Shown here one piece after another: positions 24,351 through 32,093 of a stretch of 64,000 nt of DNA. Within the stretch, counting starts at the first letter, position 1. Every line of letters begins with the position of its first letter. The notes beneath the pieces were generated by a model, which saw only the letters and a program-made list of their open reading frames with translations, did not search any database and was not told the origin of the DNA. Location of the stretch: positions 868,001-932,000 of the forward strand of contig OZ287079.1 in the NCBI GenBank assembly GCA_965645245.1, written 5' to 3'. The DNA comes from Massalongia carnosa (Eukaryota). A program made the position numbers and the translations under genes.

Positions 24351-24398
24351 AGGTTTCGACGACAGGTTTCGACGACAGGTTTCGACGACAGGTTTCGA
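24351..24398. repeat. 13-bp tandem repeat (AGGTTTCGACGAC) x ~3.7
   Basis: Three perfect units plus a partial unit, directly visible. Confidence 0.9.
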
Positions 24399-24932
24399 GA
24401 ATATTGCCCGTGAAAAGCGAGTCAGGGTATGAAACTAATACAACCATAATTTAGAAGCTTATCGAGATCTTTCGAAGGATGAATAATGAAGCCCGAAAGG
24501 CCGCACATCAACTCTGCGCCTGAGTGGTTTGGGCTCGATCTCGTAAAGGTCCTTGATCACCCGAACTGCCAACTCCCAACTATCAACTATCAGGCTTGTC
24601 AGCTAAGACTTTCTGATGACTGCGCATACTCGTTACGAGCGATCTCGATATAGAAGCTGATACCTATAAAGTCGGGTAGAAATGAAAGTGAAGAGATGGA
24701 ATGAACGATGATGCTTAATAAGGAAGAAATATACGTGGTTCTAAGGTCATGTGACCCGGCTCGCCGTGACGGGATAAGTGATTCGTCGCCCTCCATCTCC
24801 ATCACCCATAGGTTTCCCTGTCTTTCGGTCTTGTTGCATGGCGTACATTGAAACTTCTTACTGTTAAAGACGAATAACTACATCATGTTACTCGGGGGGG
24901 TTTTTTTTAAAAGGTTTTCAGAGTACAGAGTA

Positions 24933-26456
24933 CGAGAAAGTGCCATCTCAGACCTGAGATGTTTCGAATGAAAAAATCTAATTTACTACTACTTTTCATT
25001 TACTTACTATTTGGCTTGCTATTTTTTCATGCGAATCTCAAAATATCTCTGATTTCTGCTCCGGACATGCTTCGCTTCGCTCCGCAACGGCCCTACGCTA
25101 TCTCCTCCTTGGCACCCGCCAAAGCATCTGTCAAAGCATCTTCCAAATAGTCTCCCAGATAGCCTCCGCTGATTTTTATAAGGCCCCACATCTAGCCCTT
25201 AAATAGCCTTTCAAATAGTCTCCGCTGCTTTTCAAATAGACTCCCAGATAGCCTCCCAAAAGCCTCCCAAAAGCCTCCCAAAAAGCCTTTCAAATAGCCT
25301 CTCAAATAGCCTTTCAATTATCTTCCAAGTATCTCTCAAATATCTCCCAAATAGTCTCCCAAATATTCCCCCAAATAGCTATCAAATAGCCTCCCAAATA
25401 GTCTCCGCTGCTTTTCAGATAGTATCTCAAATAGCCTTGCATAAAGCCTCGCATAAAGCCTCCCAAATAGCCTCCCAGATAATCTTCACCGCTTTCAAAT
25501 AGTCTTCCAAATAGCCTCCCAAATAGCCTTCCAGATATTCTGCTTAGCTATCAAATAATATCCCAAATAGCCTCCCAAATAGCTTTCCAATTAGCCTCCC
25601 AAATAGTCTCCCAGATAATCTCCGCTGCTTTTCAAATAGCCTTTCAAATAGTCTCCCAAATAGTTTCCCAAATAGCTATCAGATAGCCTCTTGAATAGCC
25701 TCAATATCTATCTCCCTCGTTATCAATTTTCTTTTTTCGCCGCTTTTCGCATAGCTTCTTTAGCTTTTTGGTCTCGTGCATCTTGAATTCGTCTATATTC
25801 TCGAAGCTGTCGATAATGAGACACTCTAGAAGCGTAAAATTAATCGACTCCGTTTCTCCCTTCCAACCCGATTTTCTATTATATGTCGTTTGACGTGATT
25901 ATAAGCTCGTCCGTCTCGAGTCTTATCTATATCATCGTCAATTTTTTTCGTCAAAGTATCTTCCGTTAATATTCCTGTATCGAGTTCACGTTGATATTCA
26001 GCGGGTGAAAGGAGCTGCGATGAAAAGGCTAGGATGAAAAGAGCTGCGATGATAGGTAAATAACACGAAAAGCACCGTAAACCCAATCGAGATCGAGTCC
26101 GCGCTAAATCTCTTATGGACGATTTCAAAGAAAATCTGATGCTTCGCAAAGAGACCTCCTCCCCCCACCGCAAACGGGCGAAAAAGCACGCAAGTTTCGA
26201 GATATCGACTATGGTTGATGTGATTAGTAGGTCTGCAAAGTTTTACGATATCATATGATGAAATGCATGCTCGCAATGAGGTGCTTCTTTTTGGTCCTTT
26301 CCGTACGGCGTCCTCTCCGCATTATTTGATAACTCAGTACTGTTCCGCAAGCCGCGTTCCCTTTTTCGGGTTAAATCTAACCGCATGAGGTTTGATCTAA
26401 CCGAATGAGGTAGTGTTGCCCAAAGTAGCAGGGGACCTCTTTCAGTACTATATAGA
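24933..26456 (-). mobile_element. Non-autonomous Helitron (element B, 1524 bp)
   Basis: On the minus strand it begins TCTATATAGTACTG at 26456 and shares ~150 bp of 5' end with element A. It ends with the hairpin ATCTCAG-GT-CTGAGAT (24945-24960) 12 nt before terminal CTCG, followed by host T. Confidence 0.8.
25141..25702. repeat. Degenerate 12-bp minisatellite (CCAAATAGCCTC)n inside Helitron B
   Basis: Dozens of 11-12-bp variant units over ~560 bp, with a recurring TCTCCGCTGCTTTTC spacer near 25220, 25403 and 25620. Confidence 0.9.
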
Positions 26457-26757
26457 CGAGACCGTGCCATCTCAGAACTGAGATTTTGGAACCGGTTTCA
26501 AGTTTTTACGATCGATACAATTCGTAAAAGGTTGTAAATTTAAAACCACGTATGCAATACAAAATTATCTATTTAATTTCAGGATTGAAATGGAAAAATT
26601 GAAAACTTTTCTTAAATTTTCTAAAACTTACGACTTGCGAAATTAGCGGAAAATGTCACACTTGATGACCCGGACGATAAATTTTTGATAACACAATAAA
26701 CTTGCTGTCTATTTTGCAATTGAATACATTTTCTAAGTGACATGATACCCTATATCA

Positions 26758-29589
26758 TCATAAACTTACAGCAGGATTCGGAGGAACATGAGTTATCATG
26801 TCATGTTGCGATCGCAGAATTACTTCCGGATATACAATGTTATCCGTTTTCCAGTCATTTCGTTCCGGAAACAACATACACAATCGAGACACATCCATAA
26901 CTCGAGATAATGCCACATATAACTGACCATGAGTAAAAGGAGGAGCTCGCAAATCGACTCCTATCGTGTCCAATGATTGACCTTGCGACTTGTTGACAGT
27001 CATAGCAAAGCACAATCGTATCGGAAATTGTTTGCGACTTATGATCCAGGGCAACTCGCCTTCCGTGGTATTAAGAAGAATCCGGGGAATTAATCGCGTT
27101 TCACCGTTGAATTCTTATCCCAAAATCTTTCCCTCTAGACAGGTCCGCGAAATGTGAGTAAGACGTAATCGGGTGCCGTTACAGAGACCAAGTTTGGGAT
27201 ACAAATTCCGCAAAAAAATGATTCGGGCTCCAAGTTTCAGTTGCAATTGTGAAGGTTGTATAGACGATGTTTGCAAGGGTTGTAAAAACTCGGGAGGAAG
27301 AAAGTCTCCTCGTTCCTGCGCCGTATCGTTCTCTATTTGAGCAACGGAGTTCAAGGTGTGCGAACCGCCCTGCAATTTATTCAGTACTGCACCGTTTAAC
27401 TCTGCGACGATATTGTTCCACAAAGTCAAAATTGCTCGACTTGCGAAAGAATCCGCATCCAGATGAACTTGCCGCATGCGATCGGAAGGAAAAACGGTGT
27501 CCACGAAACTGTCTAAGTTGTTCAGTTGATTGACTTGTTCCGGTAGCTGAACACGACCGGAAAAAGCAGGATCATAAGACATTTTCCCGATCCAGTCCGC
27601 AAACGCCTCATTGGCGACTTCGTTACGAATTCGCATGATTTGACGCAAAAACAGTTTTTGAAATCGCGGCCACAGAAGGTGTTTTGAATGTTCGCCGCAA
27701 CGATGGCTTCCCGATTTCCACGGGGAACAACGGGCAAGATTTGAGCGAAATCTCCGCCTAACACCATCGGAATAACTCCGAAAGGTCGTCATTACCTAAA
27801 AGGTCCGTAAAAGTGCGATGTACGGCCATGAAGCATTGTTTGTGTTGCATCGGCACCTCATCCCCAATGATTAAGGCTGTGCGTTGCAAAAGACAGTGTA
27901 AATGCGTGTTGCGGGTGATATTACACATGCTGTCCTCATTTAAAATCAAAGGAATTTTCAACCGGGAATGTGAAGTCTGTCCGCTAGGAAGAAGTAAAGC
28001 CGCAATGCCGGGAGACGCAACGCAAAGAATGATTTTATTCTCCGCCCGAATATCATTGCAAAGAGTCTAATATAAAAAAGTCTTACCTGTTCCTGCAGGT
28101 CCGTGAACAAAAAAATGCGCCATTCTAGGATAATCTCTAACTCCCGCAACAATGGTATCAAAACAGTATTTCTGATCCGCATTCAATTGAGTATATCGTT
28201 CATTTCGTAACGTCGTTTCTTCGTTGAAATCGTAAGTCATTTCTGTAACGGTTCGACCATGCGTGGTGCGGACGGCAGGACCTACAGCGAACAAAGCAGG
28301 AGTCCCAGTTATAGTAGAATAGAGCTTGGTCTGCGGACTAAGTATTGTGCCTTTTGGTCGGGAGGACAGATGGCGCAATGGTAGAAATCTATTTACTTCT
28401 CGCTTCGTCACAATTTCATTTGCGATCAACGGATTTCCAGTACTCCGACCCCAATCGTATGTAAACAGCGGCATATTCTAATCCTCTAATCGTTTTCCTA
28501 AATCCGAAAGACCTCCGTTTAACAAATAAAGGCCGTAATCTAAATGCGGACTCATTAAATCGTCAGGAACATCAGTCATTGATCGTAATCGATGCGGTAA
28601 ATCGTCATATATATCATTTGCGTATCGATTCCATAAGGCCGTAGGATCCGTAACACGACGATCATCGGTTGTGGCCGCATTCTCCTGCAAAGCCTCGCTG
28701 GCGGATTTGTAAAGCATGATAAAGGGATTCATATTGTGCAACATCTCTGTTAAACGTCGTACAATATCGGGATCCAATTCTGTATGTTGTCGAGTACGAA
28801 TCGCGGTTGCTTCGTCGGGATCGTAAAAAACAGTTGAGCAAAGCGAGGAGAATCGTCAACGGGATCCAAAGGACCTTGCAGGTGATACAGTTCTCCGTGA
28901 TTTTGAAAACATACCGGTCCACGACCGTTGCGAGGAAGTCGGCGATCGGGTTTGTAGTTTACGGAGGTGAACGTCAACGTGGAATTATATTTTCGGAGGT
29001 TTTTGCGAAATGTGCGGGTTCTAATATCGTCACCAATTAACAGTTGCCGTAAATAAGCAGGAGGAGGCTGAAACGGTGGCAACACGACACCACCTCGCTT
29101 GCAACAGGATTTGTATACTCGATCTCGTCTTCTGTCACTCTGAACAGCTTCCGTTTCCCAATGCCACGCACCGCAGTTTCTGCAATGATCTGTCATGTGT
29201 TGAATTCGTTGTATCGCGGATTCTAAAGTGTACTGACTTTTAAATGCGGCAGGAAAGTTACGATTTGCAGCCGCATGGTCACGGGCTTCAACAGTACGGT
29301 CGCGACGACGTGTTCGACGATTTCCTCGTGACTCACGATGATTAACAGGTGGAGAAACAGGTCTGGAACTCGCAATGGATGGAGAAATATGTCCGAAACT
29401 CGACCTTACGAAACCGCGAGCTCGGTTGTGATTGTACTGACCCGCTTCTGCTTCGTTGAGCAGCATTTCTTCCCAAATGTTCGGATTTTCCAACTGCAAA
29501 TCATTTCGATTTGGCGGGCTTGGCGAGTGGAAAGCCGACGATACGGGAGAAACGGAATTCGTTATTGAACTGTTAGGCGAACTCTGCAA
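26758..29589 (-). pseudogene. Helitron Rep/helicase (PIF1-like SF1) pseudogene with internal deletion, stops and frameshifts
   Basis: N-terminal CxxC...CC module (CRNCGAWHW...SCCKRGGV...FRKNLRKYNSTLTFTS). Walker A HGPAGTGKT, DEVPMQHK, LGGDFAQILPVV, LRNLYPKLGLCNGTRL, QFPIRLCFAMTVNKSQGQSL and HGQLYVALSRV. In-frame stops at 28478, 28067 and 27115, plus frameshifts. Confidence 0.92.
28244..28412. mobile_element. Solo LTR, 169 bp, nested in the Helitron RepHel
   Basis: TGTAACG...CGTCACA termini (TG...CA, imperfect inverted ends) flanked by a perfect 5-bp TSD ATTTC (28239-28243 and 28413-28417). Removing it restores NPLIANE-MTYD. Confidence 0.82.
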
Positions 29590-31334
29590 AGATGGAAGAG
29601 TGACAGGAGATACAATCGAACTTCTTGGAGGAGCAGGCGGACGCAGGAAAAGACTAACAGAACGTTTTCGGTGGTCGTAAGCTTAGACGAACGCGTTTTG
29701 CGGGAGGATTTTCCGGAGAATTCACTTTATTATGCGGTCTACGGAGAGAACACCATTGTCGTAACGGAATGGGAAGTCGTGAAACGATTTCTCGAGGAGA
29801 AGAGCTAGGCTGCAAAGATATAGCGGTAGTCGTTGCTGTTGTTGCGAAGAGATCAGATAATTGTTAATGCTAAACCCAATTAAGACTACGTTAAACCGAA
29901 TCGAGGGTTTTCGCAGGTTCATTGAACGGACGGATTTAGCGCAGTTTTCGGGAACATCAAAACATGAAAAACGCGAACAACGACCACCTCTCGCGGCCCA
30001 CAACGAACGTAAAAGAACGTAGTTTTCGCGATACGGACTGATATCAACAGGATCAGTTGATCTCCGAAGTTTGACGAAGTGAAACGGTCCGGTACGGTCG
30101 AGGCAACAGGGGAATTTTTGGTCCTGTCCGCAGGGAGGTCCTCCCCGCATTATTTGATAATTCAGTACTGTTCCGCAAGCCGCGTTCCCTTTTTCGGGTT
30201 CAATCTAACCGAATAAGGTAGTGTTGCCCAAAGTAGCAGGGGAACTCTTTCAGTACTATATAGATTGTACCAACTCGTTGTTTCCCTAACTAGAACAACC
30301 TTTATCCTAGTTTTTTCTTCCTATTTTTACTAATCCACGGTTAATATATCGCTATTTTTCTTGAAATATCTTTGCAGCTAGAAAACGCAGGGTACAATCG
30401 CCTTGCTAATGTATTGAATCCATACACCCTGAACAAGAAGATGAGTTGCTCTCAACATTTTTTAGTAGTGTATATTTCATACTATCAAGAGCCGCTTCTC
30501 TAAATGGCGAATGTCAAAAATTCTCAAAGCCATTTCTGGATATATAAATTTCATCCCAAGACAAGAAGGGCGTTCGTTCGTGTGGGTTCCACGTTTTTGC
30601 TGCTTGGGCTTTAGGAAAAAATTGTTCCTAGGAGGCGTTTTTTCCTCTGTTTTGGTTTTCACATGCTAGAGTTTCCAAGCCTGTTTTGCTTACTTTCATC
30701 TCATCAAGGGCCGCTCCTTCCGTTATATCTCGTTAGACCTCCCAAGTTAACTTTCTGTTTCTGAATCATCTTATCAGAAGTAGCTCCTTCCCCCGCGTCG
30801 CTTTTCACATGTGAGAAGTTCCACCAAAACCGTTCTACAGAATCTCTTCCCGTCTTACGGTCATTGGGAAGCGATTTCCTTCATTTTCACATGCGGTGCA
30901 AGCCACACCATGGATCACATCTTTCTTCAATATGGAGTTCTATATTATATAGCCCAGTTCCTTCGTCTCGTCTTCTCCTTTCTTTCTTAGTTCGTCTTGT
31001 CTTCTTCTCTTTCCCTCCCATATATACAACCAATTAAAAGGCTTGCGCCTTTCACCACGAGTTTCGAATTACTTCATATTCCTTCTATCCACTCAACTCC
31101 ATAATCCCAGCGTCGAAGGCATTAGCCTTACTACACCGCTTCCTCCCCATATTTCATGTTTCACTGCCAGAACGAACCTCCCAAACAACGCATTCTCTGC
31201 TGTCATCTCTTCCTGCGAATTCATCGGACCAAATATTTAGGGTCAATCATCCCTTCCTACGAATCAGTCAATCGAACCGGAGCAGGGCATTCAGCAACAG
31301 CTGTTAGCCTGGAATATAAAGACAACTGGACGAG

Positions 31335-32093
31335 ATGTCGAGTTTTTTGGGATGGTCCGGCCTTGGGTCCTCGAGCGGACCCGACAATTTGCGTCCCGGC
31401 TTGATGTGCTGGCTGCCTCGAAGAAGCGATATCCCCAACTATCTACTTCGGGGGTGCAGCATCAACGAAGGCTGTTTCCATCATCCATTCCTCGTCGTGG
31501 ATGTTGATGACGCAACACAAAGTGTGGATGGATTCATTGTGACTATTTCCTTATCCTAGCTTCATACATCTAGCCTTACTTACAGTTAATAGGTAACGTC
31601 GTTCGGAGGCAAGCAAATTATGCAAAAGCATCCAACCAACGCTTACATCCGATTTCACCACTTGCCCATCTCTCCTTCTCCGATCCATCCGGATCTTGGC
31701 GTCCAGCTTTCTCTCGAGGGTGGTCTGCAGCTGCGAAAAAACTCCTACATCAACCTGGGAAGTCGGATTCGCGTCAACTTCGGGGTCCTCGCTGGGTACG
31801 CTTACGATGGCCAGATCTTTCGCCTCCAAGCGGATTCTCTCACCTGCTTGCGTCTTCACGAGGATACCTGCCGTCCAGGAAGTCTTCTGGCTTCGATCCA
31901 GAAGAGTGGCCATGTTCGTGATTGCCTATACCAAGCCCAGCTATGCAACATGGTTCTGAACCCTCAAGCACCTGACTTTTGCAAGGCTGAGGTCCCGGGC
32001 ACACTCTTGAATCCTCGAGCATCGGATTTTGTTTGCAAAGCCGAAATGCCGGCAGCATTTTGGAACCCGCTAGCTTCGGCATTTGTGTTCTGA
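31335..32093 (+). CDS. Uncharacterised 234-aa protein: PemK/MazF-like domain plus three C-terminal PAM2-like motifs; exons 31335-31538 and 31593-32093
   Basis: A 54-nt phase-0 intron 31539-31592 (GTGACT...CTTAC...TAG) joins two ORFs into RPGLMCWL...HHPFLVVD...GFI|VTSFGG...LRKNSYINLGSRIRV...FRLQADSL. The tail contains LNPQAPDF, LNPRASDF and WNPLASAF. Confidence 0.7.

Follow-up and report, generated by a model that had tools for sequence, protein, structure and literature searches.

Helitrons are generally described as inserting between the A and the T of an AT dinucleotide with little further preference, and head-to-tail Helitron junctions have been taken for rolling-circle concatemers or have gone without an explanation. 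A cryo-EM structure of Helraiser was reportedly obtained by Kosek et al. in 2021. Helraiser/Helibat1 of Myotis (Grabundzija et al. 2016, PMC4778049; Grabundzija et al. 2018, PMC5876387) resembles the family described here in its homologous RepHel transposase, its 5' TC and its 3' hairpin, as well as in an A|T target without target site duplication (TSD) and a preference that is strongest on the 3' flank. Helraiser ends in CTAG, and the accessible parts of these papers describe its 3'-flank preference as AT-richness, whereas the present family ends in CTCG and has a discrete spaced target box. In the model proposed for Helraiser, tyrosines of the transposase cut both the element circle and the target strand and become linked to the 5' ends, and Helitron neighbours with a 5' end abutting a 3' end, in tandems of different elements with a G|T junction, have been noted in bats (PMC4778049). 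For wheat, the target is given as AT in the available text (PMC13286980).

A maize pair (Du et al. 2008, PMC2267711) also consists of two different Helitrons with the 3' end of one joined to the TC of the other in a G/T junction without a host A, and its authors propose consecutive insertion at the A|T of the 5' end or the G|T of the 3' end. It is a single case whose order was not resolved and for which the accessible part of the paper describes no target motif, whereas we find 28 junctions in 19 arrays together with an extended target motif. The fungal FoHeli elements of Fusarium oxysporum (Chellapan et al. 2016, PMC5148889) likewise have several short 5' termini, insert into themselves and use a target that extends beyond AT (TNAT|A), but they are of the Helitron2 type with inverted repeats, prefer sequence 5' of the cut and, in the account available, provide one near-tandem only. 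The IS91 family (PMC13181058) likewise uses HUH rolling-circle transposition with a one-sided target and no TSD, and its target CTTG/GTTC resembles its own terIS cleavage tetranucleotide CTCG. IS91 elements are, however, bacterial, lack a helicase domain (PMC5876387) and use a contiguous 4-nt target, whereas the family here mimics its 5' end with a bipartite site and a flexible spacer. A Helitron target box mimicking the 5' end was not found in the accessible parts of the papers searched. What is new is the genome-wide rate of tandems and a target rule that explains it; the tandem arrangement itself was already known.

Structure of the tandem locus

The window, that is, the whole stretch of 64,000 nucleotides analysed, is part of contig C13 of a eukaryotic genome of 52 Mb in 25 contigs, and its flanking DNA is also present in a lichen metagenome run, which might point to a lichen-associated fungus as the source. 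On the minus strand, host sequence ending in GGTACAA is followed by unit A, which runs from TCTATATAG (30264) to a hairpin and GGCACGGTCTCG (26457), and directly by unit B, from TCTATATAG (26456) to a hairpin and GGCACTTTCTCG (24933), after which the host continues with TACTCTG. A host A at 30265 precedes unit A, a host T follows unit B, and the junction at 26456/26457 reads CTCG|TC, or CTCG|TCTATATAG, with neither spacer nor TSD, confirming the head-to-tail tandem of the original prediction. The approximately 150-bp 5' end and the 3' hairpin said to be common to both units are indeed similar: positions 1–150 of A and 1–169 of B agree at 82% over 170 columns, B being about 19 nt longer, and the final 36 nt agree at 86%, with no likeness outside these ends. 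The two units were also called different Helitrons, which holds for their unrelated interiors, but they are two subfamilies of one family.

Unit A (26457–30264, minus strand, 3808 bp) is a non-autonomous RepHel deletion derivative; the comparison of its copies comprised 21, partial ones among them, that diverge by at most 3% from the family majority. Its 5' terminal sequence (30115–30264, minus strand) starts with TCTATATAGTACTGAA. A 310-aa open remnant of the RepHel N-terminus (28753–29682, minus strand) is colinear with the start of a longer D unit and has no Pfam match. The Rep (HUH/Y2) deletion point lies at approximately 28657–28662 (minus strand) by comparison with the D unit, which has about 1.15 kb extra there, and no match was obtained when Rep residues 1–560 of a relative were searched against unit A. 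The RepHel frame is interrupted by a solo-LTR-like insert of 169 bp (28244–28412, minus strand), very short for its kind, which has the form TG...CA and a 5-bp duplication, GAAAT. In the runs it is covered at several hundred to several thousand times the single-copy depth, which marks it as a high-copy repeat. There follows a PIF1-type helicase remnant (26820–28243, minus strand, lower boundary approximate; Pif1_2B, E=6.5e-14) broken by stops and frameshifts. The 3' end (26457–26484, minus strand) consists of the hairpin ATCTCAG-TT-CTGAGAT (26484–26469) and 12 nt ending in CTCG. Unit A thus retains only the N-terminal and helicase parts of RepHel and is a dead derivative. Among A-subfamily copies genome-wide, shared substitutions define conflicting sets of copies, which suggests that recombination or conversion might have occurred among them.

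Unit B (24933–26456, minus strand, 1524 bp) is non-coding; 18 of its copies, departing by no more than 2% from the family majority and in part incomplete, entered the comparison. The first bases of its 5' terminal sequence (26288–26456, minus strand) form a target-like site directly after the CTCG of unit A. A degenerate 12-bp tandem repeat of 44.6 copies occupies 25193–25702, and the 3' end (24933–24960, minus strand) carries the hairpin ATCTCAG-GT-CTGAGAT (24960–24945) followed by 12 nt ending in CTCG. The adjoining host target site, T-ACTCT-GTACT (24922–24932, minus strand), mimics the 5' end of the family and is an instance of the motif T-N7-9-AC described below.

The flanks of the tandem differ from each other, as in precise insertion without TSD. 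The original prediction had proposed a search for the empty locus, and one 2949-bp contig of run X1, a lichen metagenome from a different study, joins window position 24930 directly to 30268 and contains neither A nor B. This empty site is 5 nt shorter than the predicted join 24932|30265, which places the join within 5 nt of the predicted A|T point. Runs X2 and X4 show no differences from the window at both outer junctions and were not counted as support, as they may be its source; run X5 covers the locus too thinly to be given weight. Neither a solo-A nor a solo-B allele of the locus occurs among the matches listed in four runs. Nearby, a perfect 13-bp tandem repeat of 3.7 copies lies at 24351–24398, about 530 bp from the insertion. 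At 30740–31669, a low-copy repeat is hinted at by contigs of several runs that break off at either end of the stretch and by a somewhat raised depth; a terminal inverted repeat of this segment was looked for and not found.

Family census, arrays and classification

Ends were located by pattern and the surrounding stretches were then fetched, a procedure that degenerate ends will have escaped. The whole genome yielded 104 5' ends and 99 3' ends, with 85 occurrences of the 3' hairpin pattern against none for the reversed control. The junction pattern gave 26 exact and two one-mismatch junctions (control, 0), three further one-mismatch matches being host flanks. This confirms the census, in which 28 of the 99 3' ends directly adjoin the 5' end of another family member, and no junction with one extra base between units was found. 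The junctions fall into 19 arrays, 13 of two units, three of three and three of four, with mixed orders such as B+B'+A+A', D+A+C+B, A'+B+A and B'+C+D (the subfamily labels A, B, C, D and their primes were coined in this analysis). Both orders of the window pair exist, A|B at four loci and B|A at three, along with A|C, C|B, B|C, D|A and others.

Head-to-tail arrays in plants and bats have been cited for rolling-circle transposition (PMC5876387), and the original prediction had listed a rolling-circle concatemer among its routes. Such an array would consist of copies of one donor, possibly diverged or internally rearranged later. None of the 28 adjacent pairs is identical, however, the closest reaching 95.7% over 3260 nt. 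Many solo copies of A and of B exist at 97–99%, so both pre-exist as subfamilies. The lack of identical neighbours and the mixed orders argue against concatemers, which the unrelated interiors of A and B refute at the window locus, and we consider this origin scarcely credible.

A family member at C2:838965, 96% identical in DNA to an in-family unit over 2.5 kb, encodes a RepHel protein with Helitron_like_N (E=1.4e-57) and PIF1 (E=2.2e-64) matches, HMH at residue 197 and YIHKY at 343, and it matches Helraiser (PDB 7LCC) at E=1.1e-160. This combination of an HUH, two-tyrosine Rep with a PIF1 helicase defines the Helitron superfamily and bears out the earlier identification as Helitrons. No intact autonomous copy was seen, the longest Rep-containing open frame among 21 scored matches being 862 aa. 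Weaker Helitron_like_N matches at C21:890805, C12:1095826, C16:1609977 and C16:1296540 probably represent a second Helitron family; the two of these loci that were fetched have no long DNA match to the present one. Adjoining the C2 RepHel remnant, a 566-aa open frame (L185:4739-6439) looks, by eye, like a Tc1/mariner-type transposase.

As in HLE1, T is the first base of 96 and C the second base of 98 of the 104 5' ends, although the search pattern favours both, and 12 nt separate a 16-nt palindrome from the 3' end (folding of 61-nt windows, z=-2.85 for B and -1.51 for A, the latter not significant alone). Where the ends are flanked by host DNA, A precedes 51 of 63 5' ends and T follows 65 of 67 3' ends, in agreement with the A|T insertion claimed at the outset. 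Other copies ending elsewhere would have spoken against the predicted boundaries, but 88 of 95 3' ends are CTCG in the same register. None is CTRR, the canonical HLE1 end, and the family therefore appears HLE1-like rather than canonical HLE1; the variants CTTG and CTRY have been published (accessible parts of PMC4289320 and PMC6544945). HLE2 (Helitron2/Helentron) was considered and rejected, as no inverted repeat of at least 25 nt links the ends and none shorter is evident in the termini, the target is A|T rather than T|T, and DUF6570 has no match in the scanned 862-aa part.

Target motif and insertion gradient

After 28 junctions, one degenerate end and five near-duplicate flanks were dropped, 65 host flanks remained. 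The motif T-N7-9-AC lies just 3' of the insertion in 54 of them against a background of 14.6%, and in 37 of 42 held-out flanks that had not been seen when the motif was proposed. The longer form T-N6-8-TAC occurs in 38 of the 65 (background 3.5%), and 11 lack the motif. Within the first set, 51 of 61 flanks have the AC start at positions 9–11, where about three would be expected per position. Upstream, bias is confined to position -1, where the A noted above prevails and G occurs in 4 of 63. A fitted model gives the box (G/A)TACT(A/G) with the AC starting at position 9, 10 or 11 (26, 48 and 25%). This box equals positions 9–14 of the 5' end of the element, TCTATATAGTACTG, which has the pattern T-CTATATA-GTACTG with the box GTACTG and AC at 11, and the 5' end ranks in the top 0.01% of sites. 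The rule rests on one genome; a metagenome scan for the 3' hairpin returned 18 matches, none reaching CTCG in register, which are therefore chance matches and provide no second genome for the motif.

IS608-like base-pairing of the 5' end with the target was also considered, but AGTACT is palindromic and sequence alone cannot decide. Read-out by a protein fits the conservation of the 5' ends better, because positions 8 and 10 vary (20 and 8 of 104), in contrast to the nearly fixed A11-C12-T13.

Insertions per available site rise over successively closer motif tiers from 3.8e-7 (no motif) through 5.2e-6 and 2.3e-5 to 1.4e-4 (69 flanks; site counts of the lower tiers extrapolated from 117 kb of window flank). 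Sites of the form TCT-N3-5-GTACTGA reach about 0.009 per site (5 insertions; 613 sites, from which about 76 real 5' ends are subtracted), so that chromosomal look-alikes are about 60-fold hotter than the next lower tier, the top tiers having been defined after seeing the data and resting on these five insertions. Real 5' ends receive 0.27 insertions per site (28/104). A position model trained on host flanks predicts 0.07% of insertions at 5' ends against the 28% seen, a 400-fold gap.

Four insertions with four different 3'-end variants share one site, which resembles the Helitron 5' end, in the terminal repeat of an unrelated terminal inverted repeat (TIR) element; chromosomal look-alikes are thus hot without a Helitron intermediate. 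Similarly, two copies of another repeat carry insertions at the same base, one an A copy and the other a B-type copy. Recurrence of independent insertions at the same repeat sites supports sequence specificity. The TIR element, which is presumably hAT-like, has 263 matches genome-wide (e.g. L001:1886-2101) and an 18-bp terminal repeat. It occurs in forms of 0.2–0.7 kb and about 6 kb; a single copy was checked and has an 8-bp duplication.

These observations are probably best explained by a transposase that reads targets as its own 5' end, new copies having been inserted in front of the 5' ends of family members. A and B, as non-autonomous members of one Helitron family, would be moved in trans by the RepHel transposase. 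The target would be chosen through the strand 3' of the nick, that is, A|T, five to seven free bases and then (G/A)TACT(A/G), and a single binding site of the protein might hold the 5' end of the element and also read the target. A site shared in this way predicts that targets resemble the 5' end downstream of the cut only and that 5' ends are the best targets, both of which are observed. The 5' end of a family member would then be the best target in the genome, and strand transfer exactly before it would yield host-A, A, B and host-T joined by CTCG|TC with no spacer or TSD. The acceptor would be a copy residing in the chromosome, in many cases since only recently, and not a free intermediate, and B might have been first at the window locus. 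The 400-fold shortfall of the model means that a longer recognition surface or a pre-bound transposase must be assumed. Self-targeting was one of the routes of the original prediction and gains support from the match of the motif to the 5' end and from the 28 mixed junctions. The AT dinucleotide that it named as the site cannot by itself explain 28 joined ends out of 99, the motif on the 3' side having been missed.

Age and descent of joined units, and wider readings

Age was measured as private substitutions, which depend on the number of relatives per unit (4 of 28 junctions had too few); nearest-neighbour divergence was dropped as a measure since it is inflated by tandem repeats. At the window locus, A carries 4/3759 and B 2/1050 (p=0.62). 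Five of 24 joined pairs differ in rate at p<0.05 (three after Bonferroni), the downstream unit being older in all five, and in none of the 24 is the upstream unit significantly older. The ages of joined neighbours correlate (rho 0.86 across 24 of the 28 junctions; 0.87 when each of 17 arrays contributes a single junction), above a null in which the resident is older (p=0.003), whereas a closeness test against the same null is not significant (p=0.23). Neighbours within 45 kb that are not joined correlate as well (rho 0.61, n=11, not independent).

Similar ages of neighbours are what would be expected if hetero-multimers had formed off the chromosome in one burst and then integrated once at a motif site, a fourth route beyond the three originally listed. 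The 3'-OH of a peeled strand might attack another element at its 5' end, to which transposase is linked, or, as a variant, one circle might insert at the junction of another. In the C18 array, for example, all four units have 0–0.11% private substitutions. Joining in a burst would also explain why the host-trained model falls short 400-fold and why 9 of 100 5' ends are directly preceded by a short 5' fragment, mostly of another subtype; precise 3'-to-5' junctions and circles are reported for Helraiser in the accessible parts of PMC4778049 and PMC5876387. We nevertheless regard this route, in either form, as unlikely. The correlation among unjoined neighbours means that the match in age may stem from regional mutation rate or survival, the five pairs of unequal age always have the older unit downstream, and the gradient, with its hot look-alike sites, nears the rate of real 5' ends without any intermediate.

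The ages bear also on the re-use of host sites, in which the motif, lying wholly 3' of the nick, would survive a first insertion so that a later element enters at G|T, A being first and B second. A G at -1 is tolerated, and maize lines with only the left element of such a pair are described by Du et al. 2008 (PMC2267711, as far as accessible). With no pair in which the upstream unit is significantly older, and with used host sites being ordinary motif sites to which the model assigns a share of 0.003%, this order of events seems quite improbable.

The descent of the partners bears on whether A+B moved as one composite through terminator read-through, the A|B loci descending from one another. 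Bypass of the end has been demonstrated for Helraiser (accessible part of PMC4778049), A|B occurs at four loci, and the B unit of the window is nearest to that of the C9 locus (0.66%), with two exclusive and two nearly exclusive substitutions in common. Their A partners, however, share no derived sites and conflict at 15 informative sites, and the A units of the four A|B loci are not a clade, although later conversion among mosaic A copies could blur this evidence. Partners that are not co-inherited argue against read-through, many other unit orders occur, and read-through could not create the first junction. This originally listed route is accordingly very improbable.

Returning to insertion before family 5' ends, it would replace a weak AT preference by a strong and quantifiable target code equal to the element's own 5' end, and mixed tandems would become a predicted outcome. 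The motif gives exact oligonucleotide substrates for target recognition by RepHel, and it suggests re-reading the flanks of other families with a variable spacer, including the 1,751 mapped Helraiser sites. Junction PCR for circles, which had been proposed as a check, is unreliable where 28% of ends are chromosomally joined.

A more far-reaching reading, which we consider possible rather than probable, is that one RepHel site reads T-N-RTACT 3' of every cut, at the origin, the donor end and the target alike. If so, the host motif would become part of the terminator of the next round after insertion, like the target tetranucleotide of IS91, and 5' ends would be safe havens in which about 30% of insertions land. 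The weak 3'-flank bias of Helraiser might then be the same rule masked by an AT-rich 5' end, and the target preference of each family would be predictable from its own 5' end.

The short 5' fragments, found at C4:1545797, C6:1688728, C6:1486178, C9:2171409, C15:1774143, C19:652843, C21:451467, C2:3060262 and C13:1476460, measure 13–132 nt and mostly differ by 2–8 substitutions from the adjoining complete 5' end, sometimes with two or three extra bases. They look like truncated incoming copies; nested insertion was rejected as their origin, as in the fragments examined the next bases of the parent start no target motif and the downstream unit is not followed by any remainder. Mini-elements of 43, 43, 43 and 166 nt occur at C7:1660264, C12:177466, C15:1481813 and C13:1224439. 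They end at an internal (C/T)TCG without a hairpin, where the parent sequence reads TCG|T-N9-AC, as at a junction, and in all four a host T-N-AC site follows.
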